Of a stretch of 64,000 bases of DNA, positions 20,960 through 53,484 are shown piece by piece. The DNA is from Helicobacter cetorum (GTDB taxonomy: Bacteria > Campylobacterota > Campylobacteria > Campylobacterales > UBA6016), in assembly GCA_022729705.1 (NCBI GenBank), contig DZAX01000011.1, positions 1,063-65,062 on the forward strand, written 5' to 3'. Numbering within the stretch: the first letter of the stretch is position 1; every line of letters starts with the position of its first letter. The notes beneath the pieces are model-generated. The model worked only from the letters and a program-made list of their open reading frames with translations. It searched no databases and was not told where the DNA came from. The position numbers and the translations under genes are program-made.

Positions 20960-21097
20960 TTTGATTGATTCTCACATTTTAAGCAAAGCTCAAAATGAGG
21001 TCTTCAGCAGACGGCTCTCGCGGCTTGCCATGATTTTGATTGATTCTCACATTTTAAGCAAAGCTCAAAATGAGGTCTTCAGCAGACGGCTCTCGCG
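20960..21097. repeat. two perfect 63-bp direct repeats (20960..21022 and 21035..21097) separated by 12 bp
   Basis: The unit TTTGATTGATTCTCACATTTTAAGCAAAGCTCAAAATGAGGTCTTCAGCAGACGGCTCTCGCG occurs twice with no mismatch. Each unit holds an imperfect palindrome, CTCACATTTTAAGC/GCTCAAAATGAG. Confidence 0.9.
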
Positions 21098-21133
21098 ACT
21101 AGTCGCTCTTGGAATTAGTGGTTTCAATCTGTT

Positions 21134-23841: not shown

Positions 23842-23865
23842 ATTAACAGCCCTTTTTTTAATTTA

Positions 23866-24002
23866 GTTTACCAACCTTACGCACCAAAAACGCAAAGACC
23901 CCTCATTTCTCCCGCGAATGCGGGTAGCTTTAGGGGGTTGCAAGGGACATTCATGTCCCTGCCGCCAATACGGGCTTTGCTCGTATTGGTGCGTAAAATC
24001 AG
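23866..24002 (+). repeat. structured MITE-like repeat, copy 1 (full length)
   Basis: Outer arms TTACGCAC (23877..23884) and TGCGTAA (23890..23896). Hairpins CCCGC-gaat-GCGGG (23911..23924), AGGGACA-ttca-TGTCCCT (23943..23960) and CCAATACGGGC-ttt-GCTCGTATTGG (23965..23989). An 8-mer, TTAATTTA, occurs at 23858..23865 and 24003..24010. Confidence 0.85.
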
Positions 24003-24055
24003 TTAATTTATGAAAAAATTGTATCAAAAGCTTGATAACAAAATAAAGGCGACTA

Positions 24056-26523: not shown

Positions 26524-26645
26524 CTCACCTTACGGTGCCGCCCCTAAACTCCCCCGCGAAAGCGGGTAACTTCAGGGGGATGCAAGGGACATTTATGTCC
26601 CTGCCACATATACGGGCTTCGCTCGTATATGTGCGTAACATCCAG
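26524..26645 (+). repeat. structured MITE-like repeat, copy 2
   Basis: CCCGCGAAAGCGGG, AGGGACATTTATGTCCCT, CACATATACGGGCTTCGCTCGTATATGTG, and a 3' end GTGCGTAACATCCAG. Same order as copy 1. Confidence 0.85.
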
Positions 26646-28442: not shown

Positions 28443-29234
28443 ATGTCAACAATAGCAAATGTAAAAGAGACACTTGAGTTAGAAGTAAAAAACTTTAACT
28501 TTTACTATAAGGGTACTACGGAACCGAGCCTCAGAAATATCAATATGCCAATCGCAAAAAATAAAGTAACAGCGCTGATAGGTCCCTCAGGCTGTGGTAA
28601 AACAACGCTTCTAAGAGCTTTCAATAGAATTCACGACCTATACGCCGGAAATAGATACGAGGGCGAAATACTTTTTGAAGAGAATAAAAGAAATATTCTT
28701 TCTAACGATGTGGACTTGATTGATTTAAGACTACAAATCGGAATGATTTTTCAAAAACCAACTCCGTTTCCTATGAGTATATTTGATAATGTCGCATACG
28801 GGCTAAGACTTCAAGGGATTAAAAATAAATCAGAACTTGAGGGAAGAGTTGAGGCGGCCATTAAGGGTGCGGCTCTATGGGGCGAGGTGGAGAAAAGACT
28901 ACACGCCGACGGCAACTCGCTCTCGGGCGGACAACAACAAAGATTATGTATCGCAAGAGCCGTAGCGGTTGAGCCAAAAGTACTGCTATTTGACGAGCCA
29001 ACTTCTGCTCTTGACCCAATATCAACACTTGCGGTTGAGAAACTTATTATAGAGCTAAAAGAGAGATTGACCGTAATCATCGTAACACACAATATGCAAC
29101 AAGCGGCAAGGGTGTCTGATTATACGGCGTTTATGTACATAGGAGACTTGATTGAGCTTGGTCAAACAGAAGAGCTATTTATAAATCCTGCCGAAAAACT
29201 AACAGAAGAGTACATCACCGGTAAATTTGGTTGA
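28443..29234 (+). CDS. pstB: phosphate ABC transporter ATP-binding protein PstB
   Basis: 263 aa. Walker [10 protein letters not shown], signature LSGGQQQRL, Walker [12 protein letters not shown], and the PstB-typical NFYY near the N-terminus. Confidence 0.95.
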
Positions 29235-29251
29235 TTTTACAATAGCCAAAA

Positions 29252-29350
29252 ACTAAACTCTCCCGCATATGCGGGTAGCTTTAGGGGATTGCAAAGGACA
29301 ATTTTGTCCTTGCCGCCAAGATGGGCTTTGCCCATCTTGGTGCGTACCAT
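29252..29350 (+). repeat. structured MITE-like repeat, copy 3 (5' truncated)
   Basis: CCCGCATATGCGGG, AAGGACAATTTTGTCCTT, CCAAGATGGGCTTTGCCCATCTTGG, GTGCGTA. It lacks the 5' outer arm. Confidence 0.8.
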
Positions 29351-29356
29351 ATGGTG

Positions 29357-34610: not shown

Positions 34611-35625
34611 CCCTACCCTAACCTCTTCTTACGACTACCAACTGCCGCCCGAAAGAATAGCCGCATATCCGATAAATCCAAGGAGTGCGGCAAAACTACT
34701 AGTTGTGGATAGAAAGAGCGGCGCCGTCACACACTCCACAATCTCAAAAATAGATGATTTTTTGCCGCAAAATACCAAAATAATAACCAACGATACAAAA
34801 GTAATCAAAGCACGCATTTTTGGACATAAACAAAGCGGCGGAAAAATAGAGTGCGTCGTCGTAAAACCTCTTACAAACGGCTCATTTTTGGCGTTAATGC
34901 GCGGAAGAATAAAAGTCGGCGAAAAGGTTTTTTTTGACAACAACCTCTCTCTTGAAGTCATGCGGCTTTTGGAGGACGGAAGCAGGGAGGTTCGCTTTTT
35001 TGACCATAGCGAAGAGCTTGATTTTTACCAGCTAATAGAGAAACTGGAGAAAATTGGTCATATCCCACTCCCGCCATATATCCACAGGGCGGACGAAAAA
35101 AGCGACGAAACAGACTATCAAAGCCGTTTTGCCAAAAATCCCGGAAGCGTCGCAGCCCCAACCGCTTCTTTGCATTTTGACGAAGAGCTTTTGTCAAAAC
35201 TTAGGCAAAAATACGATTTTTACGAACTTACGTTACATGTCGGGCTTGGCACATTCAAATCTGTGGAAGCCGAGGCGCTAAAGGGGCATCTTATGCACTC
35301 TGAATATTTTAACATACCACCGCACACCGCAAAACTGCTAGAATCAGACGTAAAGCTTTTATGTATCGGAACGACGGCGACTAGAACGGTCGAATTTTTC
35401 CACCGTTCAAAACAAGTCGAGGGCGAATGCGATATTTTCATCAACCCGCAAAATCCGCCGCAAAGAGTGGATATGCTGCTTACAAACTTTCACCTGCCAA
35501 AATCGACGCTTATTATGCTCGTATCCGCTTTTTTGGGGCTAGAGAAGACGCTTGAGATATACAAAGAAGCCATAGAGAAAGAGTATCGCTTTTTTAGTTA
35601 TGGCGACGCTATGCTGTTGATATAA
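34594..35625 (+). CDS. queA: tRNA preQ1(34) S-adenosylmethionine ribosyltransferase-isomerase
   Basis: 343 aa. YDYQLPPERIA, GHIPLPPYI, VAAPTASLHF, TNFHLPKSTL. Confidence 0.92.
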   Translation: MQKLLDPTLTSSYDYQLPPERIAAYPINPRSAAKLLVVDRKSGAVTHSTISKIDDFLPQNTKIITNDTKVIKARIFGHKQSGGKIECVVVKPLTNGSFLALMRGRIKVGEKVFFDNNLSLEVMRLLEDGSREVRFFDHSEELDFYQLIEKLEKIGHIPLPPYIHRADEKSDETDYQSRFAKNPGSVAAPTASLHFDEELLSKLRQKYDFYELTLHVGLGTFKSVEAEALKGHLMHSEYFNIPPHTAKLLESDVKLLCIGTTATRTVEFFHRSKQVEGECDIFINPQNPPQRVDMLLTNFHLPKSTLIMLVSAFLGLEKTLEIYKEAIEKEYRFFSYGDAMLLI

Positions 35626-35732
35626 ATGGTACGCTAAGACGAGTGAAGCCCGTCTTTAGCTACGTTAGCCACTGTGGCACTGAAGCTAGCCGCATTATGC
35701 AGCAGAATTGGTTTGTATCACACCCTGTTGTT

Positions 35733-41050: not shown

Positions 41051-41068
41051 AGCCTCCCTTTCTTTTAC

Positions 41069-41094
41069 GCAAAACGGACAAAAATCCGTTTTGC
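41069..41094 (+). terminator. stem-loop after fliW (putative terminator)
   Basis: GCAAAACGGA-caaaaa-TCCGTTTTGC, 18 nt after the fliW stop. There is no long U tail. Confidence 0.45.
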
Positions 41095-41237
41095 TCCTCA
41101 CACAAATAAAACTCAATAACTCACCTTTTAATAATAAATACTACTTGTTGTTGCAAAATAATAAACGCTACAATACAAGATGAAATAGGGCGGCGTTTAA
41201 CAAATAATTAACACTAAATGGTTACTTTATATGCGTT

Positions 41238-41323
41238 CATCTCCGAATGCGGGTAGCTTTAGGGGATGCAGAGACATTTCTTGCCGCCAATACAGGCTTT
41301 GCTTGTATTGGCGCACAACATCA
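41238..41323 (+). repeat. structured MITE-like repeat, copy 4 (5' truncated, hairpin 2 degraded)
   Basis: CTCCGAATGCGGGTAGCTTTAGGGGATGCA..., CCAATACAGGCTTTGCTTGTATTGG. It ends 18 nt before the PCuAC ATG. Confidence 0.75.
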
Positions 41324-41340
41324 AATCAGAGGAAAACAAA

Positions 41341-42260: not shown

Positions 42261-42827
42261 ATGACTAAACAAAAAAAAATAATATTGGTTCTGTTGCCGT
42301 TGCTTGTAGCGCTTGGATTTGGCTCATTTTTGTATTATCAACACACGGCAGAGGTCGCAAAATATAGCTTTACGGTACAAAGCGATACAAAAGAGATAAA
42401 GTTATCAGATTTTAGAGGTAAAAAAACAATCGTCTATTTTGGCTATGGATTGTGTCCTGATATTTGCCCAACCACACTTACGGCGATAGCCGGAGCTCTC
42501 AACAAGCTAACGCCGGTAGAGCTAAACTCCATAGAGGTTGTTTTTATTAGCGTAGATCCAGATAGAGACAAACCCAAAGAACTTAGCGTATTTGCGCGCT
42601 ATTTTCACCCAAAAATTATAGGCGCTACAGCTAATGAAGCGCATATTAAAACCGTCGCAACAAACTATGGAGCTTCATACAAAAAAGTACCCCAGCCAGA
42701 CTCCGCCATAGGGTATTCGGTAGCGCATAGCGCCGACGCATATCTGATAGGCAAAAATGGCAAACTTGAAAAAGCGCTTCCTTTTGGCGCATCATCTGAT
42801 GAAATAGCCGCTGACATTAGAAGATAA
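42261..42827 (+). CDS. SCO1/SenC-family copper chaperone (thioredoxin fold)
   Basis: 188 aa. N-terminal TM, FGYGLCPDICP (CxxxC) and a conserved downstream His (VAHS). Confidence 0.85.
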   Translation: MTKQKKIILVLLPLLVALGFGSFLYYQHTAEVAKYSFTVQSDTKEIKLSDFRGKKTIVYFGYGLCPDICPTTLTAIAGALNKLTPVELNSIEVVFISVDPDRDKPKELSVFARYFHPKIIGATANEAHIKTVATNYGASYKKVPQPDSAIGYSVAHSADAYLIGKNGKLEKALPFGASSDEIAADIRR

Positions 42828-42855
42828 AATTTTTGACACAACTCCTGATTATACA

Positions 42856-42985
42856 CTGATGTTACGCACAAACACGAGCAAAGCCCGTATTTGCGGCAGG
42901 GGCTATTCGCCCCTTGCATCCCCCTAAAGCTTCCCGCATTCGCAGGAGAATGGAGGTTGTAGGAGCTTTGCGTGCGTAAGGTCAG
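42856..42985 (-). mobile_element. structured MITE-like repeat, copy 5 (full length, inverted), with target-site duplication
   Basis: Ends are CTGATGTTACGCAC and GTGCGTAAGGTCAG (a 14-nt TIR, 12/14 matched). It is flanked by direct TTATACA at 42849..42855 and 42986..42992. Confidence 0.85.
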
Positions 42986-43156
42986 TTATACATAGCTTTT
43001 GGCGCAAAACAGTGTAAAGAGCTAGCAACAATCGTAACCATTGACTATTTTCAATCAATATATGTGAAAAAATCAAGAAAAAATCCTATTTATAAAATCT
43101 AATATAACATTTTTTTTAGTATCATATAGTGTTTGTAAGCAAATAAAAGGTTTAAA

Positions 43157-45178
43157 GTGGCGTTTGAAAAAATTAAATTTTTTACTACTGTCGCATGCCT
43201 ATCGACTATAAAGACGCTCGCAAGCGACGCCGTTGTAGTTGACTTAACAAACGATATACACAACTTTACCAACGCCGCCGTAAAAACAAAACAAAATATA
43301 GATTATCTACCATTCATAATGTCCGTCTCTGATGGCGACAATCTTTCAAAGCTTGGAGTTCTTACTCTAAAAGAAGCCTTAATGTTGTTTGTCGGCGTAG
43401 ACGTATCAACAGATAATATAAAAAGTCAATCACCTATTTTTCGCGGCTCAAACCCTTTTGCACATGGACAAAGTAAGCTTATTATAGACGGCGTTGTCGT
43501 CAACGATAGAGTCTCAGGCGGATATACGGCGTATTTGGATATGCCCATAGAGATGATAAAAAGAATAGAAGTTGTAAGAGGTCCGGGAAGTTTTGCCGAT
43601 GGTTCAAACGGATACGCAGGCACAATTAACGTAGCCACATACGCCAAAGACGGCTCAAAAGAAGGCGGCAAGGCTTACGTCCTGTACGGCTCATACAAAA
43701 ATAGAAGTGTGGGAGCCTTATACAACACAAAAATCGGCAATTTTTTGTTTCATATAGACGCCTATACGCATAAAGATAATATGAAAATTAGTACAAACGG
43801 AAAAGACGGTCTAAGCTATAGCAAACAAAATAGCTCCTTATCGCGCTCCGGAGAGGTTGACATAGGGCTGGAAACATCGGCTTTAAGCGTCGCTATAAAG
43901 TCTCAGGAGCTTTCGATAGTAGGTCGTTTTACCTCGTACCAACCCGGAAGCGCCTTTGGAATGCTAAACACTCTTCCAAACGAGGATGGAAGCCAAAAAA
44001 TGCCGTCTTGGTATCTTGAGGGGACATATAAAAAAGAGCTTACGGCGGATGTTTTTGTAGAAACTAAAATAGGATACATGGAGGACGGATGGGAGAGCTA
44101 TGCTCGATCTTATCCGGCGGGTATGAAGGCGGCGCACACTGTTTTTCAAGACGGTTATTGGGCGGATCTTTTATTGACAAATAGGGTTATATATGGCGGC
44201 GTCTCCATAAGATATGACGGCTTAAAAAACCATACCCCAAAAATAGGGGCGTATCAAGGTGATGAAAAAAATATTGATTTACGCTCTATAACTACAAACA
44301 GGATCACCGGCGCAGGATGGGTGGACTACACAAAAAGCGCGCCATTTTTTGACGGAGAAGCGGCAAAAAGAAAAACAACAAAACTATATCTAAGCGACTC
44401 TTGGGAAATCTCTGAGAGTTTAGCCTTGTCATTTGAGCTAGGAAGCGACAAGGCTAGCGATTTTGAAAGACAAAATGACTATCGCGCGGCGCTTGTGTGG
44501 CAGATAAGCGACTCCGATATTCTAAAAACCATGACGAGTACGGCATACCGCGCCCCATCATGGCAAGAGCTATACGGCATAAACAATACGGCGCGAATCG
44601 GAAGCAAAAACCTAAAACCAGAGAGAGTTCGCGCATATGAAGCTCAGTATATTAAAAAACTAAACCAAGACAACTCGCTTGCTATAAATCTATTTTTTCT
44701 ACAAAATAAAAATCAAATTAATAAAATTAACGCTCAAAACCAATATAGAAATGCCGGAGATTCCTTAATATATGGAGTTGAAACGGAGTATAAAAAAGAG
44801 TTTAGCACAGGAATCTTATGTGTGGGCTACTCGTTTTTAAAAGGCAAAACAAACAACGAAGACTCTTTGCCATCAGCCGCTAGACGTCTATTTAAAGGCT
44901 CGGTTTTAAAAAAAATATACCCTGGATTCTCTATCGCCGGAAATATCGTTTATGTGGGAGATAAAAAACGAGTCGCGTCGGACAATAGAGACGAAACACC
45001 ATCATATACGACAATCGACGCAATCGTAAACTATGACGCCAAAAAATGGGGAGCGCAGTTTGGCGTAAAAAACGCTACAAACACAAGAGCGTTATATCCC
45101 AGTGAACAAGGTTCTTACCCAGGTGATTATCCCACAAGCAAACAGACTCTGTTTGTAAAACTATTTGCTAGGTTTTAG
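43157..45178 (+). CDS. TonB-dependent outer-membrane receptor
   Basis: 673 aa. Plug-domain pattern (IEVVRGPGS), a long beta-barrel region and a C-terminal aromatic residue (LFARF). GTG start. Confidence 0.75.
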   Translation: MAFEKIKFFTTVACLSTIKTLASDAVVVDLTNDIHNFTNAAVKTKQNIDYLPFIMSVSDGDNLSKLGVLTLKEALMLFVGVDVSTDNIKSQSPIFRGSNPFAHGQSKLIIDGVVVNDRVSGGYTAYLDMPIEMIKRIEVVRGPGSFADGSNGYAGTINVATYAKDGSKEGGKAYVLYGSYKNRSVGALYNTKIGNFLFHIDAYTHKDNMKISTNGKDGLSYSKQNSSLSRSGEVDIGLETSALSVAIKSQELSIVGRFTSYQPGSAFGMLNTLPNEDGSQKMPSWYLEGTYKKELTADVFVETKIGYMEDGWESYARSYPAGMKAAHTVFQDGYWADLLLTNRVIYGGVSIRYDGLKNHTPKIGAYQGDEKNIDLRSITTNRITGAGWVDYTKSAPFFDGEAAKRKTTKLYLSDSWEISESLALSFELGSDKASDFERQNDYRAALVWQISDSDILKTMTSTAYRAPSWQELYGINNTARIGSKNLKPERVRAYEAQYIKKLNQDNSLAINLFFLQNKNQINKINAQNQYRNAGDSLIYGVETEYKKEFSTGILCVGYSFLKGKTNNEDSLPSAARRLFKGSVLKKIYPGFSIAGNIVYVGDKKRVASDNRDETPSYTTIDAIVNYDAKKWGAQFGVKNATNTRALYPSEQGSYPGDYPTSKQTLFVKLFARF

Positions 45179-45708: not shown

Positions 45709-47088
45709 ATGAGTAAAATAAACTTTTCTCTCTCAACTAAGATTTTAGCAAGCTTTATAGCGGCTATGTTGGCGGTATTTGCATACTTTGCATACTCCGT
45801 TGTAATAAGCGTAAAAGACGGTATGCTTATATCGGAAAAAGAAAAAGGAGCCTTGCTTCTTAGCTCGGTAGCTCCCGATATAGGTATGAGTCTCTATCTC
45901 GGGTTTGAAGCGCAAGGGGCGCAAAAAGCAAAAGAGCTTTTAGAGTATCAAGACGTTTTATCCATAGACGTAAAAACCGTAGACGGGCGCTCAATCGGAC
46001 ACTTCGAATCGCCAAGCACCGCAAGTGAGGATTTAAAAAGAGCGATAAGAATAAACAAAACAATCAAAGACAGTATAAGCGGCAAACAAATCGCCATCTT
46101 GGAGATGAACTACTCAAACAAAAACTACCAAAGATTGATTGATAATTTTAAAGAGCTTATTTTTAAGTTTGGAGCCATTTCGGCGCTTATTTTTATGTTT
46201 ACTCTTGTTTTTGTAAAATGGCTACTCTCTCCGCTCTCCACTATAGCCTCAAAGATGAGAGAGTATGTGCCGGGCAAAAACATAACTTTTGATAGAAATG
46301 AAAGCGACGACGAAATAGGCTCCATAATCACCTCTTTTAAAGCTATGCAGATCAATATAGACAGTTTTCTGGAGGAGATTAGAACAAAAGACGGCGAACT
46401 TATGCGTCAATCAAAACTAAAAGCGCTTATGGATATGATAAGCGCCGTGGCTCACCACTGGAGGCAACCTCTTAATGCGACAGGTATAATACTTCAAGAG
46501 TTTAGATATGCGCATAAATTTGGAGAGCTAAATGAGGCGTTTATTGAAAAAAATATAGAGATGGGGATGGGAATATTAAATGGTATGTCAAAAACCATTG
46601 ACGACTTTCGACTATTTTTTGCCTCAAATGAAAAAGAGGAGAGCGTAGACATCGGCAAAGCAAGCTCTGAAGCGATAGAGTCCTTAGCTAATCAGCCACT
46701 CTCCAAAGAGATAGCCATAAAAATACATGGAGATAATTTTTTTGTCACCGGACAAAAAGAGCTCCTAACAGACGTTATAGCGCAGGTAGTATCAAATGCA
46801 AAAGACGCTTTAAGCGAAAAAATAGCTAGCAACAAAGATTTTAAGGCTTTAATAACTATCTCGCTAAATTCCGATAAAAAAAGCTTTGAGTGCAGAGACA
46901 ACGGCGGAGGTATGAACGCCGAGGCTTTAGGAAGAGTTTTTGAGCCGTACTTTACCACAAAAGAGCAAGGCAAAGGCGTAGGTCTCGGTCTTTTTATGGC
47001 ACGCACAGTGATTGCAAATATGAACGGCAAACTCAGCGTATCAAATACGGACGACGGTTTTTCTGTGTTAATTGAGTTTGAGCACTAA
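45709..47088 (+). CDS. sensor histidine kinase
   Basis: 459 aa. Two TM segments, H box SAVAHHWRQPLN, N box SNAKDAL, G boxes RDNGGGM and GKGVGLGL. Confidence 0.85.
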   Translation: MSKINFSLSTKILASFIAAMLAVFAYFAYSVVISVKDGMLISEKEKGALLLSSVAPDIGMSLYLGFEAQGAQKAKELLEYQDVLSIDVKTVDGRSIGHFESPSTASEDLKRAIRINKTIKDSISGKQIAILEMNYSNKNYQRLIDNFKELIFKFGAISALIFMFTLVFVKWLLSPLSTIASKMREYVPGKNITFDRNESDDEIGSIITSFKAMQINIDSFLEEIRTKDGELMRQSKLKALMDMISAVAHHWRQPLNATGIILQEFRYAHKFGELNEAFIEKNIEMGMGILNGMSKTIDDFRLFFASNEKEESVDIGKASSEAIESLANQPLSKEIAIKIHGDNFFVTGQKELLTDVIAQVVSNAKDALSEKIASNKDFKALITISLNSDKKSFECRDNGGGMNAEALGRVFEPYFTTKEQGKGVGLGLFMARTVIANMNGKLSVSNTDDGFSVLIEFEH

Positions 47089-47115
47089 AAATCTCTTGTC
47101 GCTTTACATTTTTTT
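46874..47115 (+). repeat. left copy of a 242-bp perfect direct repeat (kinase 3' end plus 27 bp downstream)
   Basis: Identical base for base to 53243..53484. Confidence 0.95.
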
Positions 47116-47274: not shown

Positions 47275-47619
47275 ATGAAACATTGGAATATCAACTACTT
47301 TTTTAATATCAACGGCAACTCACCAGTAAAAGAGTGGATTGATGAGTTGTCCGATGAATCGAAAGCGGAGATTTTCAAAGTTTTTGAGCTTTTAAAAAAG
47401 TACGGTATAGAGCTTGGATTGCCTTTTGTCAAGTGCCTTGAGAGCAAAATCTATGAAGTCAGAACAAAAGACAAATCCGGCATTTATCGGGTTTTGTATT
47501 TTGCTCATACGGATAGAACTTTTGTACTGCTTCACGGTTTTAAGAAGAAAACACAGGCTACGCCTAGAAAAGAGATTGATATAGCCATAAAAAGAATGAA
47601 AGAGGTACAAAATGGATGA
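47275..47619 (+). CDS. RelE/HigB-type (Gp49-like) toxin
   Basis: 114 aa. PVKEWIDEL..., KIYEVRTKDKSGIYRVLYF..., FVLLHGFKKKTQATPRKEIDIA is the Gp49/HigB-like toxin pattern. The toxin-first order and 8-nt overlap with the antitoxin gene fit HigBA. Confidence 0.75.
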   Translation: MKHWNINYFFNINGNSPVKEWIDELSDESKAEIFKVFELLKKYGIELGLPFVKCLESKIYEVRTKDKSGIYRVLYFAHTDRTFVLLHGFKKKTQATPRKEIDIAIKRMKEVQNG

Positions 47620-48109: not shown

Positions 48110-48372
48110 GTGGATGATGGTCAAAAAACGATACGAGAGATTGAATCAGAAGATGGATGTTTGATATTTGATGACACGGTTCAAGAAAAAGCATGGACGG
48201 ATGAGAGTGAAATGATGTGCTATCATTTTGATCATACCAAAGGGCGGAGTGTCAAGGGGTTAAATATTTTAAATGCCCTCTATCATAGTAATGATACCGC
48301 CATGCGTAGCCTATGAAATTGTTCGTAAGCCCATTCATTTTTGTGACCTAGAAACCAAACAAACTCCCGCTT
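48110..48372 (+). pseudogene. internal fragment of a DDE (IS4/IS701-like) transposase, frameshifted and truncated
   Basis: The 68-aa piece ...LIFDDTVQEKAWTDESEMMCYHFDHTKGRSVKGLNILNALYHS carries the DDE first-Asp region. It continues in another frame (IPPCVAYEIVRKPIHFCDLETKQ) and runs into the res 3' end. A stop lies immediately upstream at 48101. Confidence 0.6.
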
Positions 48373-51251
48373 AAAGAACTCTCGTTTATCTTAGCACTCC
48401 TTGCAATATCCTCCATATCCGCACCGCTTTTTTGAAGGCTGTAAAACTGTGTTTCTCCCAAAAGTAAGTAGCTCCAAGTTTTGGACTCTCTTGAATCTTC
48501 ATCAAGTGCATTTATGCGACGGATAAAATCTAAAGTTGCCCGTTGTTTTTGCTTGACATTGACATCTTTTAAATCTTTGTCCGATTTTGTCTCCACCAAA
48601 TAGATATTTGTTGCAGTTTCAATCATAAAATCAGGATAGTAACTAGCCATCAATCCATCATCTCTAAAATAGCTAATCGTTGCAAAATCGTGTTTGAACT
48701 CTAAAATTTTGATAAATTTCAGCACCTTGCTATCTTTGTCTAAAAACTCTAAAAATGCTTTTTCAAATCCCCCTTTATTGGATGGATATGATGTTTTTTC
48801 GTAGATTGTTTTTTGTAAATCTAGCGAAAAATTTGCCCTCATATTCAAACTACTAATCTTTGAAAAATAGATTTTATTTACAAGAGGTTTTATATAAGTT
48901 GTACTATTTTGCATATTGTAAATAAGTCTATGTATCTCATTGGTAATATGTGTTGTGATATTTGCATTTTTGAGCATCAAAACTCGCCAACTCTCATCTA
49001 CAAAAGGATTGAACTCTTGTCCAAAAAGTTTTGTTCTTATATATTTATCCAAAACTCCTAAAAGTTGGGGTTGATATATTTGCATTGATGGCAAGGCTCG
49101 ATTATGTCCTCGCACTTTTAATTGCCCCATTTTATGCGTTAAAATTTCTAAAATCTTTTGCAGATACTCGTTGTAGCTATTAGCTGTAAACAGATCCGCA
49201 CTTATCATATAATCGCCAAAAGTTGTTTTAACCGTTAGCTCTTCAGAGTGAAAAACCTCGCCTTTTGTAGTCCATGATTTAAGCTGTTCCAAACTATGGC
49301 ACAAGTATGGCGGAAGTGCATTTACATCAAACTCAGGTGCGTTTAACTCCTCCTCTTCATCTTTGACTATCTCCAAAAATGCCATGTCATAATCTTCATA
49401 GTTCTCTTTGAGCCCCACTTTTATCATGTCGCCCGTAGAAGTTCCCTCTTTTAACTCATTTTCATCAAAACCAAACTCATCCTCAGAGAGTAAATCCCTG
49501 TAAAACTGGCTAAAAGCAGGATGTTCGATGATGCTCAAAACATCCAAATAAGAGCTAGGACTTAGTTTGTCTTTTAAAACTCTTTGTCTATTTTCTCGTT
49601 TTTCATCTTCAAATTCAGCTCCTCGATACATAAGTCGAAGCCCTCGACCGATAGTTTGCTCCAATAAAATCGAAGATTGATTTGACCTAAGTGGCACAAT
49701 CACACAAACATTTGATACATCAAATCCCTCTTTGAGCATCAAAACAGAAATTACAACTTTTGGATTTTCATAAATATCAAGATTAAAAAGTTTTTGTTTT
49801 AAACTAGCCCATTCCTCTTTTGGTATTTCTCCATTTTTTTTAGAATGAACTCCCATAAACTCATCATTTTTAAAACCTATCTCAATCAAAAAATCTTCTA
49901 CAAATCTTACAACTTCCGTATCTTCACACATGATAAGCATTTTTGGATGTTTTGGATTATCAAGTTTTGAAAAATCTTTTTCTAAAATATTTAGTTTCGT
50001 AAGTCCAGCTTGTATCATTATTCTTTGACCATCACTTAGACCTATCACTTTATTTGAGCCTTCATCTCTTAGGGCTTTAAAGTCTAACTCCAAAGTAGAT
50101 AACTCTTTTCTTTTATCAATAGTTATTATTTTTACCAAACCATCTTTTATGGCACTATTCAAATCAAAATCTACGACGACATGAGGGAAATAGTGTTTAG
50201 CTCTTTTTTCTCCGCTTCCCGTCGTGTCGTAAGGGGTTGCTGAAAAATCTATTTGAATAAACTTACTTCCTTTATTTTTGGCTATAAAATTTAAAGATTT
50301 TTGCCACTCAACCTCTTGAATTTCTCCTGCAGATTTATTTTCGTGGATATGATGGGCTTCATCATTCATAACTACCAAATCATCAAGCCCAGCTAAAAAC
50401 TCTATTTCTCCACCACTAAAATAAGCATTATCAAGAGATTCCAAACTATTTCCTGCCGAAGTTCCAGGTCGTGCTGGAAAAATATCTGCAATCACACCAC
50501 TTGGGTCATCAAGTGGGCTTATCTCCTCAGCTTCTTCTTTCCCCATAAACAAATGCCAATTTGAAATAACCAACATCCCATCACTTGTAATTTTTTTGCC
50601 TATTTCATCTTTCGTTACAACACTTGAAGATAAAAAAGCTTTGATTGTCATCTCATATTTCCCGGATACAAAAAGCTCTTTGTTTTTAAATATATCACTT
50701 GTGTTTACATCACGGCTTCCATCAACTCTTTGTTTGCCCATATAGCTATCAAGCAATCTTTCATATACGATAAGCCCAGGAGCTATAAGCAAAAAGTTTT
50801 TTGAGTATCTTCCACGTTTTTCTTTTTCGCTTCTTGCATTGAGGTATTGCCAAATAAAAAGTGCGTTCATAACCCAAGTTTTTCCGGTACCTGTTGCCAT
50901 TTTCATACCGTATTTTGGGATATTGTATTTCTCTTTTGTTAGAAGTTCGGAGTTTAGTTTTAGTATAAGTTCTTTGTCGCACTTTTCATAAATCTCTAAA
51001 ACTGAACTTACTTTTAATATCTCATGTAGATAAATAGTATTTAAAATAGCTTGTTTTTGCCCTCTATGAAAATTTATCTCTCTCTGGCTTATATGCGGTT
51101 CACAAAACCAAAACTTGATTAAATCCGCCGTTGTAGGGGTCGCAAGAGTTAAAAACTCTCCACTTTCCCAAAGTTCATTTACTATTTTTGAGATACTTTG
51201 AGCTAGCTTTAGAGGAGTTTCACCTGTTAGAGTATTTATAGAAGTTGCCAT
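48348..51251 (-). CDS. res: type III restriction enzyme Res subunit
   Basis: 967 aa. SF2 helicase motifs (MATGTGKT, MNDEAHHI, SATP, TIGRGLR) and a C-terminal PD-(D/E)xK-like YYPDFMIE...YLVETK. Confidence 0.9.
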   Translation of the reverse strand: MATSINTLTGETPLKLAQSISKIVNELWESGEFLTLATPTTADLIKFWFCEPHISQREINFHRGQKQAILNTIYLHEILKVSSVLEIYEKCDKELILKLNSELLTKEKYNIPKYGMKMATGTGKTWVMNALFIWQYLNARSEKEKRGRYSKNFLLIAPGLIVYERLLDSYMGKQRVDGSRDVNTSDIFKNKELFVSGKYEMTIKAFLSSSVVTKDEIGKKITSDGMLVISNWHLFMGKEEAEEISPLDDPSGVIADIFPARPGTSAGNSLESLDNAYFSGGEIEFLAGLDDLVVMNDEAHHIHENKSAGEIQEVEWQKSLNFIAKNKGSKFIQIDFSATPYDTTGSGEKRAKHYFPHVVVDFDLNSAIKDGLVKIITIDKRKELSTLELDFKALRDEGSNKVIGLSDGQRIMIQAGLTKLNILEKDFSKLDNPKHPKMLIMCEDTEVVRFVEDFLIEIGFKNDEFMGVHSKKNGEIPKEEWASLKQKLFNLDIYENPKVVISVLMLKEGFDVSNVCVIVPLRSNQSSILLEQTIGRGLRLMYRGAEFEDEKRENRQRVLKDKLSPSSYLDVLSIIEHPAFSQFYRDLLSEDEFGFDENELKEGTSTGDMIKVGLKENYEDYDMAFLEIVKDEEEELNAPEFDVNALPPYLCHSLEQLKSWTTKGEVFHSEELTVKTTFGDYMISADLFTANSYNEYLQKILEILTHKMGQLKVRGHNRALPSMQIYQPQLLGVLDKYIRTKLFGQEFNPFVDESWRVLMLKNANITTHITNEIHRLIYNMQNSTTYIKPLVNKIYFSKISSLNMRANFSLDLQKTIYEKTSYPSNKGGFEKAFLEFLDKDSKVLKFIKILEFKHDFATISYFRDDGLMASYYPDFMIETATNIYLVETKSDKDLKDVNVKQKQRATLDFIRRINALDEDSRESKTWSYLLLGETQFYSLQKSGADMEDIARSAKINESSLSGSLFGF

Positions 51252-51252
51252 T

Positions 51253-53208
51253 TTACACCTCCTCTTTTACCATAGATTCAAAACCAAAAACATCAACTGC
51301 TTTGACACAAACGACTCTTTTATCTTTTCGCGCAACCATGATTTTTGCACTATAAATCACATGAAGAGGGTCACCGTCATTTGCCGTGTTTTCTCTGTAA
51401 TCTTGCCATTTGCTTCTAAAGGTCACGCCGTCATAATCAGGGTCGATACTCCAATACTCAATAAGTGCCAACGGGTCAGTTGCCATAAGTTTTTGAAGTG
51501 CTTTTTTATCGTCATCATCAAGGGGAATATTATCAGGGCTTAAAAGTATGTAATTATCAAGGCTTATTTGTAACTCTTCAAGTTCGCTGTCATAGACTTT
51601 TTTCTCTATTGGTTTGATAACTAGATATTGCAACGAGCTAAATCTGATTTTGCCACTATCAACTAGTTTTTTATAAGTAGCTTTTGATTTGAGTTTATCA
51701 AGTAAATCAGGTGGAATAACCAAAACTTCAAGCTTTGAATCATTTAGTTCATTGATAGCACTACTTATATCGTATGCAAAATTCCACCCTAAAACTACAA
51801 CTTTTTCCCAACCACCTAAGAAGTTATCCCTTAACTCAATAGCTTTTTTCAAAGTAGCAAATCCAGTCATCTTGCTGGGACTATCTACAAAAACCAAAGT
51901 TTTTTTATCTTTGATATATCCCAAATTTTGCGGATGTTCATCTCCAAATCCTAAAGCCCCGCTTCCGCTCTCATCGCTAAAAAGTGAAATCACAACTTGA
52001 GATAAATCTCCGATTCGTTTATAAAGTTTGCTACTTTCAAATGCCTCTTTTTGATAATCGCCGATAGATTGATATAAAAACGGTTTCACTTCATTGTCAA
52101 TCAGCCTTTTTCTTTGTACCATAATAGAGGGTTTGCCAATGTCGGAGCTTATCCATCTGCGACCAAGCTTTTCAGCAACGGCGGCAGTTGTACCGCTTCC
52201 ACCGAAAAAATCGGCAATAATTGAGTTTTCATTTGATGAGGCTTTTATTATTCGTTCTACTAATTTTGATGGTTTTTGTGTTATGTATCCAACAAGTTCA
52301 TTTCTCCATGATGATACATTTGAAATATCTGTCCAAAAATCTTCTGGAATCTTCCCTTTTTCATGTCTTTCTAGTTGTTCCTCTTCATTATAATCCTTTT
52401 TTCCATGTACTCCTCTAGCATTTGTAAAGTCAGCTTTGTAAGCAATACGGATATCATCTGCATTAAAAACAAAATTGTTTGTTTTTGCATATCTGAATAT
52501 AACATCATGTTTTTTTGGAAAATCCTTATTTGCAGGACTTGGACCAGTATAACACCAAACAATCTCATTCCTAAAATTCTCTTTTCCAAAAATATCATCA
52601 AGCAAAATTTTCACATAATGCCCCACATGCCAATCAATATGCACATATATTGAGCCTTTTTCACTTAAAAGTTCTCTCATCAAAGCAAGTCGTGGATATA
52701 TCATTTTAAGATAACTAACCGTTCCATCTTTCCAAGTATCAGCATAAGCAAACTGTTCTATTACCGTTGGTTTTTGATTTAGATTTACATTTGGTAGAGT
52801 GATTTTTGTCCGATAATCAGCCTTTGAGTCAAACGGTGGGTCGATATAGATTAAGTCGATTTTCCCTCTCATACTTTCAAGTCCACTTGCACTATCACCG
52901 GCAAGAAGTCCTTGTATCACCAAGATATTATCCCCATAAATCAGCCTATTTTTCCAAGCATTTTCATCCTCAATAGTTGGTAACTCTCCACGAAAAAGTC
53001 CGCTTATATCTTTGCTAGGCAAAACTAGCTCATTGGTTTGTAAAGCCAAAGCATTTCCGCTATTGATTCGCTCAAGTATTCGAGCCGCTTCAGCACGCCC
53101 CTCTTTTACTATTTTTGGTAACTCTTCTATTAGTGATAAAGGCATAATTTCCCTCTTTTTACTTTTAAATAACTCAACTTTCGCACATAACCCCAGCTCC
53201 AAATTCAT
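51253..53208 (-). CDS. mod: type III DNA methyltransferase Mod subunit (N6-adenine)
   Basis: 651 aa. Motif [11 protein letters not shown] and SAM-binding [12 protein letters not shown]. Lies 1 nt upstream of res. Confidence 0.9.
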
Positions 53209-53242: not shown

Positions 53243-53457
53243 ATAAAAAAAGCTTTGAGTGCAGAGACAACGGCGGAGGTATGAACGCCGAGGCTTTAGG
53301 AAGAGTTTTTGAGCCGTACTTTACCACAAAAGAGCAAGGCAAAGGCGTAGGTCTCGGTCTTTTTATGGCACGCACAGTGATTGCAAATATGAACGGCAAA
53401 CTCAGCGTATCAAATACGGACGACGGTTTTTCTGTGTTAATTGAGTTTGAGCACTAA
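53243..53457 (+). pseudogene. orphan 3' fragment (last ~70 codons) of the histidine kinase gene
   Basis: Same sequence as 46874..47088 including the stop, but with no upstream reading frame. Confidence 0.85.
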
Positions 53458-53484
53458 AAATCTCTTGTCGCTTTACATTTTTTT
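53243..53484 (+). repeat. right copy of the 242-bp perfect direct repeat
   Basis: Identical to 46874..47115. It is followed by one extra T in the T run. Confidence 0.95.

Follow-up and report, generated by a model that had tools for sequence, protein, structure and literature searches.

A probable MITE family with a hairpin-forming interior in Sulfuricurvum, Sulfurimonas and Sulfurovum

Introduction

A 130-bp intergenic element, referred to here as copy 5, is probably one insertion of a MITE family of the Sulfurimonadaceae (Sulfuricurvum, Sulfurimonas) and of Sulfurovum. The window, that is, the whole 64-kb stretch of DNA that was analysed, contains five copies of the family and a decayed sixth, which were located by repeat finding and profile search. 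The structural features of MITEs are found together in these elements: they are small, they lack a gene, their termini are inverted, they are bordered by target duplications of varying sequence, and they occur in many dispersed copies. The only unusual aspect of the element is a well-conserved core of three hairpins with a strand bias.

The family is an undescribed and unannotated repeat of sulfur-oxidising Campylobacterota, including the type strain of Sulfuricurvum kujiense. Its copies break assemblies and sit a few tens of bases from gene starts and stops, where they could alter the expression of neighbouring genes. In addition, if the strand-biased core is a real requirement, the family offers a tractable case for studying why some small transposons keep structured cores.

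The insertion and its relatives in the window

Copy 5 occupies positions 42856-42985 on the minus strand and is a full-length member of the family (118.5 bits with nhmmer; 73.8 bits with a covariance model, over model positions 1-143). It begins 29 nt after a Sco1/SenC gene (42261-42827) and ends 172 nt before the gene of a TonB-dependent receptor (43157-45178). The heptamer TTATACA abuts the element on both sides, and its two occurrences, read directly in the sequence, are identical; these would be the left (42849-42855) and right (42986-42992) copies of a 7-bp target-site duplication. The outer context reads ...CTCCTGA before the left heptamer and TAGC... after the right one. On the strand of the window, copy 5 starts with CTGATGTTACGCAC (42856-42869) and finishes with GTGCGTAAGGTCAG (42972-42985). 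The reverse complement of the latter, CTGACCTTACGCAC, agrees with the start at 12 of 14 positions, with mismatches at positions 5 and 6. The 'top' strand of the family corresponds here to the minus strand of the window, copy 5 being inverted with respect to copies 1-4. In family orientation, then, the left terminal inverted repeat lies at 42972-42985 (minus strand) and has the consensus left end of the family, CTGACCTTACGCAC, while the right one lies at 42856-42869 (minus strand) and has the consensus right end, GTGCGTAACATCAG. Positions 5-6 of the two ends are unlike in all copies, the left end having CC and the right end TG. Because this difference is conserved throughout the family, the imperfect match is a fixed left/right trait and not a sign of decay of copy 5.

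Such an arrangement is rarely produced by chance. The window was scanned for exact 7-bp direct repeats that enclose 60-400 nt and whose inner 14-nt inverted ends agree at a minimum of 12 positions, and the site of copy 5 was the sole match. In resamples generated with a first-order Markov model, the same pattern appeared on average 0.017 times per window, and five of 300 resamples had one match. Thus, the description of copy 5 given by the first-pass annotation, with inverted ends agreeing at 12 of 14 positions between flanking TTATACA heptamers, was borne out both by reading and by the scan. No promoter-like or terminator-like sites were seen in or adjoining the element. In strain L003, the left heptamer has mutated to TTCTACA, and the insertion is therefore older than the strains that share it.

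The remaining copies of the window are also intergenic, and copies 1-4 lie on the plus strand. Of the five, copies 1 and 5 alone have retained both termini, those of copy 2 being altered. Copy 1 (23871-24002, plus strand) is full length; its left end is degenerate, reading CCAACC in place of CTGACC, and a clean duplication is missing. Copy 2 (26524-26645, plus strand) has altered yet recognisable ends and a deletion after the left end, and it also lacks a duplication. Copy 3 (29231-29353, plus strand) retains hairpins P2-P4 (see below) and the right end but has lost the left terminus, which is also missing from copy 4 (41219-41326, plus strand), where P3 is partly deleted. A probable sixth copy, strongly decayed, consists of P2-like and P4-like remnants at 35625-35712 (minus strand; nhmmer 20.1 bits, E = 1.5e-4) and falls under the cut-off of the covariance model; it sits between a gene that ends at 35625 and another that starts at 35674.

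For copy 1, a possible 8-bp duplication had been proposed. The repeat itself, TTAATTTA, is present as read, at 23858-23865 and 24003-24010. Nevertheless, the family consensus places the start of the element at 23871, which leaves five bases (GTTTA) between the left repeat and the element, and the left flank is different in the related strain L238; the duplication at this site is consequently only putative. Around copy 4, strain L003, which encodes an identical Sco1, has an additional gene for a methionine-sulfoxide reductase (PMSR), lying between that of FliW and the element (1382-1924, compared with 41051-41218 in the window), and so this neighbourhood varies between strains.

Other repeats were observed in the window. 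A perfect 242-bp direct repeat (46874-47115 and 53243-53484), equal to the 3′ end of a histidine-kinase gene (45709-47088), brackets an island of about 6.1 kb with low GC (0.34-0.35). The island carries genes for a Gp49/HigB-like toxin (47275-47619) and for the Res (48348-51251) and Mod (51253-53208) proteins of a type III restriction-modification system, and it looks like an insertion into the end of the histidine-kinase gene. Finally, two direct repeats of 66 nt, 98% identical and with starts 75 nt apart, are found at 20960-21100.

Target duplications across the family

If copy 5 arose by transposition, other full-length members would also be expected to carry flanking duplications, as the first-pass annotation had pointed out, and they do. 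Copies were collected in which both ends, CTGACCTTACGCAC and GTGCGTAACATCAG, are within three mismatches of the consensus. Once orthologues of the copies in the window had been set aside, 28 independent copies remained, from genomes of Sulfuricurvum, Sulfurimonas and Sulfurovum. An exact 7-bp duplication abuts both termini in 11 of the 28, one more has an exact 8-bp duplication, and another an exact 11-bp duplication, so that clean duplications of at least 7 bp are present in 13 of these full-length copies. When a match at six or more of the seven flanking positions is accepted, the number rises to 15 of 28, including the 11 exact cases. As a control, the left flank of one copy was compared with the right flank of another, and the match was exact in 1 of 756 pairs; with a 7-nt shift, there were no exact matches.

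The duplicated heptamers are TGTATAA, AATAAAA, TATATAA, TGTTTAA, ATAAGAT, TTAAAAA, TTAGAAT, TTATATA, ATAATAA, TTAATAA and TAAGAAA. Since they are AT-rich and differ from copy to copy, they belong to a duplicated target and not to the element. The composite variants described below are likewise flanked by a duplication around the whole unit, as seen in the 215-bp form, whose P3 loop carries an insert, and in the L020 copy, which has an internal tandem unit. The length of the duplication is not strictly constant (7, 8 and 11 bp). These duplications would be the footprint of transposition with a staggered cut. About half of all family copies have no left terminus, and such copies could therefore not move by this mechanism.

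Distribution and genomic context

One genome per species was scanned with the core motif GCGGGWARCTTYAGGGG, which matched many phyla by chance. By profile search, genuine copies were restricted to Sulfuricurvum, Sulfurimonas, Sulfurovum and assemblies labelled as unclassified Campylobacterales or 'Helicobacteraceae'. About 60 further copies were found in contigs of the three genera and of unclassified Campylobacterales. The Sulfuricurvum assembly NZ_JALNYS01 alone has at least about 40 matches in at least 21 loci. In the type strain S. kujiense DSM 16994, plasmid pSULKU01 holds one degenerate, unannotated copy between a gene of the TolC family and an Rrf2 regulator gene (L133 4958-5099, equal to about 45716-45857 of NC_014754.1). 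The window itself matches the metagenome-assembled genome GCA_022730395.1 and metagenomes from oil-sands tailings ponds.

The elements are 130-146 bp long, or 215 bp with the loop insert. They have no coding capacity, as hairpins fill the body and the overlapping open reading frames are spurious. Copies are intergenic and occur in either orientation; between co-directional genes, 16 are sense and 11 antisense, with no orientation bias seen relative to genes. In two cases (L071 2914-2987 and L015 6601-6685), a tRNA gene lies about 55-75 nt from a copy, which may be a coincidence. Viral contigs and phage records gave no real match to the family. The window and 8-12 related loci had no match in Rfam 15 at the gathering threshold, and for copy 1 only chance-level matches were obtained at E values of up to 10. 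Literature searches found no described MITE in Sulfuricurvum or Sulfurimonas.

A structured interior

Between its termini, the element folds into three local hairpins, which on copy 5 are all read from the minus strand. P2 (42933-42946), predicted by folding as CCUGC-GAAU-GCGGG, is followed by the near-invariant tract AAGCTTTAGGGGG. P3 (42896-42917) has the form GCAAGGGGC-GAAUA-GCCCCUGC, and P4 (42869-42893) the form CAAAUACGGGC-UUU-GCUCGUGUUUG. The tract between P2 and P3, GCGGGTAGCTTTAGGGGG, is nearly invariant across genera. When compared with shuffled sequences, the element has folding z-scores of -4 to -7.5.

Simple inspection of the five copies of the window reveals compensatory changes. 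When 20 copies are aligned with plain MAFFT, P4 includes one pair that is UA in 11 copies, AU in 7 and CG in 2, and another that is CG in 11 and GC in 6. A covariance model was built on 12 copies with a hand-drawn structure and recovered 80 matches. In the resulting alignment, which is fitted to the structure and in which cells count sequences and not events, 91.4% of cells are paired, compared with 79.4% after column shuffling and 32-48% with slid partners. In the same model-fitted alignment, 41 of 42 pairs have changes on both sides and the pairing of the three hairpins is 93.5-96.7%: helix 4 (P2) is 96.7% paired; helix 5 (P3) is 94.5% paired, with seven of its eight pairs changed on both sides; and helix 6 (P4) is 93.5% paired, with all 12 pairs so changed.

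Non-canonical pairs in this alignment give an indication of the strand that folds. In P2-P4, there are 112 G·U cells against 22 A·C cells, at 22 and 7 of the 28 pair positions, respectively. The corresponding numbers in the terminal helix are 37 and 26, in addition to many other mismatches. As an A·C pair on one strand is a G·U pair on the other, selection appears to have favoured folding of the interior on the top strand alone, which suggests that the form under selection is a single strand, either RNA or single-stranded DNA. The termini, by contrast, would behave like putative double-stranded protein-binding sites. Passive read-through transcription offers no explanation for this asymmetry.

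Modular variants and a second repeat family

The family is built from modules. Of 32 full-length copies, 23 have a nearby inverted copy of the left terminus on which this end folds back; the resulting stem is a perfect 18 bp in L043, and the copies of the window have lost the feature. The internal inverted copy of the left end is, in turn, a direct repeat of the right end. A unit of 106-109 nt that comprises P2-P4 and the right end is arranged head-to-tail after one full-length copy, and such tandem arrays are found at L032 6335-6694, L041 7678-7928, L071 3059-3308 and L020 7210-7421. The L020 composite is flanked as a whole by the duplication TGTTTAA. If the right end recombined unequally with its internal direct copy, such arrays would result, and many of the copies that have no left end may have the same origin.

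Insertions add further diversity. In the 215-bp variant, the P3 loop contains an insert of about 78 nt with a terminator-like hairpin, GCCAACTGCTTGGCTTTTTT, and then a run of T; forms with a P3-loop insert occur at L109 2704-2918, L032 990-1204, L025 2943-3150 and L039 2493-2851. In L039 and L041, a separate 5′ module of 120 nt (CTTTATTAACTA...GATAGACGGTAT) is joined to P2-P4.

Finally, the 24-nt tip of P4, AAATACGGGCTTTGCTCGTGTTTG, recurs exactly in a different and very abundant repeat family of metagenomes Ga0082212 and Ga0268262. A scan with the P4 tip AATACGGGCTTTGCTCGT mostly matched this other multi-hairpin repeat, in loci L139-L257 (e.g., L140, L143 and L152) with a GC content of 45-62%. 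This repeat has ATACCAAGTTGC as its inverted termini, and about half of its copies are bordered by a 3-bp TNA duplication. It has the same layout as the MITE family, a fold-back left end and then a string of hairpins; its modules are shuffled between variants, and it is absent from Rfam. For the MITE family, the three-hairpin core could be a strand-specific module, acting as RNA or single-stranded DNA for the element or for the host, and modules of this kind may pass between unrelated small transposons, an idea that we regard as speculative and rather unlikely.

Empty sites and a possible mobilising partner

An insertion of this kind predicts that related strains without the element carry a single TTATACA between the Sco1 and TonB-dependent receptor genes. 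This had been anticipated by the first-pass annotation and was looked for, and no such site was found: an exact-pattern scan of metagenomes for the predicted empty site of copy 5 gave no matches, and BLAST of 42 predicted empty sites against related loci found none. All contigs that encode an identical Sco1 carry copy 5, and all those with an identical aminotransferase carry copy 1; none is empty. The element is absent from L116 and L117, whose Sco1 is 87% identical, and so are about 70 nt of flanking spacer. Because the whole spacer there is only 13 nt long, compared with about 206 nt in the window, the site is not collinear with that of the window. In relatives with a Sco1 of about 70% identity, the element is also absent, and an HSP20 gene is found in the position of the spacer. 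An apparent empty site in L005 proved to be an artefact of identical flanks.

In the proposed mechanism, a transposase supplied in trans would bind both ends of the element and cut the target with a 7-bp stagger, and repair of the gaps would then produce the 7-bp duplication. The autonomous partner of the family would be predicted to have the ends CTGAYSTTACGCAC in inverted orientation. That copy 5 is non-autonomous, as had been noted before, still stands, since the element has no gene and ends matching it were found in the window nowhere other than at the copies themselves. In the window and the related loci, the end motifs appear only at small copies.

A search that covered the window, about 0.5 Mb of related loci and 100 kb of pSULKU01 did not turn up the expected insertion sequence with matching ends. 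The related loci had no inverted ends with a 7-bp duplication at a distance of 0.6-4 kb. The YREK motif of IS4 transposases (Y-x2-R-x3-E-x6-K) was present in none of 259 open reading frames of at least 280 aa from about 0.5 Mb of Campylobacterales loci, which amount to a small share of the genomes. The 100 kb of pSULKU01 had no annotated transposase and no second end, blastn of the left end against plasmids was negative, and the open reading frames upstream of copies without a left end revealed no parent insertion sequence. As for the earlier attribution to a DDE transposase, such an enzyme is inferred from the terminal inverted repeats together with the duplication.

The end features of the element nonetheless provide a lead. 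Members of the ISPepr1 subgroup of the IS4 family generate direct repeats of 7-8 bp, prefer AT-rich targets and have 5′-CT ends, with the terminal consensus YT-AA-YTT---A (De Palmenaer et al. 2008, PMC2266710). The element end CTGACCTTACGCAC fits six of the eight conserved positions of this consensus, with mismatches at positions 5 and 9. On these features, the ISPepr1 subgroup would be the best-fitting mobilising partner, a tentative assignment that is possibly correct but that we would not expect to hold.

Alternative explanations

The features of the interior raise the question of whether the family might be, mainly, a structured non-coding or cis-acting RNA whose terminal repeats form a closing helix and whose flanking repeats are incidental. 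In its favour are the strong covariation in the three hairpins, the conserved unpaired tracts and an excess of G·U over A·C, the last of which points to one folding strand; the hairpin loops also take insertions, as in many RNAs. However, an RNA gene leaves unexplained the 7-bp duplications, which differ in sequence and occur far above chance. The termini have many mismatches and no G·U bias, and, together with the duplications, this rules them out as a mere closing helix. In addition, orientation relative to neighbouring genes is unbiased (16 versus 11), although a bias would be expected of a cis-acting RNA, copy 5 has no promoter-like or terminator-like site within or beside it, and Rfam gives no match. 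This explanation is thus very unlikely, and an RNA function would at most be superimposed on a mobile element. On the other hand, a plain cut-and-paste element has no obvious need for strand-specific internal hairpins, which is one point against the MITE account.

A folding single strand would also be expected if the element moved as single-stranded DNA by means of an HUH (Y1) transposase, similarly to the palindrome-associated derivatives of IS200/IS605 or to REPINs. The internal hairpins fold strand-specifically, 23 of 32 full-length copies have a fold-back left end, and Epsilonproteobacteria are classic hosts of IS605 and IS608. Elements of the IS200/IS605 type and REPINs, however, do not duplicate their target on insertion and lack terminal inverted repeats, whereas 13 of the 28 copies have clean duplications of at least 7 bp and the 14-nt ends are inverted repeats. 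A one-sided conserved tetranucleotide or pentanucleotide target was not seen either, so that the combination typical of those elements (no duplication, a fixed short target and no inverted termini) is not what the family displays, and movement of this type seems highly improbable. Recombination or gene conversion among scattered copies might instead account for the spread of the family, without transposition, and the flanking repeats would then be microhomologies. The 106-109-nt tandem arrays do look as if the right end and the internal direct copy had recombined unequally, and template switching at quasi-palindromes could restore stems without selection. Nevertheless, recombination does not yield exact 7-bp duplications that, in several genera and at unrelated loci, lie directly against fixed termini, and template switching would not give the asymmetry between G·U and A·C, which makes spread in this manner scarcely credible. 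Transposition of a MITE by an enzyme acting in trans thus remains the preferred explanation for copy 5 and its family.

Comparison with known systems

Bacterial MITEs such as the Correia (NEMIS) elements of Neisseria are about 100-150 bp long and geneless, have terminal inverted repeats and a target duplication, and lie between genes in both orientations; to our knowledge, no cognate transposase is known for the Correia elements. The family described here shares with them its size, the lack of a gene, the inverted repeats, the duplication and the many intergenic copies. It differs in that its duplication is 7 bp and AT-rich, instead of a TA dinucleotide; in that its inverted repeats are only 14 nt long and have a fixed 2-nt difference between left and right; and in that it contains three separate, covarying local hairpins and not one long hairpin from end to end. 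With the ISPepr1 subgroup of IS4, it has in common the duplications of 7-8 bp, the AT-rich targets, the 5′-CT ends and six of eight consensus positions, although it has no transposase gene and the link comes from end features alone.

The modular organisation recalls other repeats. BOX of Streptococcus pneumoniae and ERIC of enterobacteria are modular intergenic repeats with a variable number of units, stable predicted single-strand folds and compensatory changes. Modularity, variable internal units and compensatory folds are therefore common to all of them. There is no sequence similarity, however, and the tandem unit of the present family contains a transposon end; BOX, in addition, has no clear terminal inverted repeats or duplications. 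Finally, REPIN/RAYT systems and IS200/IS605 derivatives resemble the family in being rich in hairpins, in folding on one strand and in having fold-back ends, but they lack target duplications and terminal inverted repeats, whereas here duplications are the rule.
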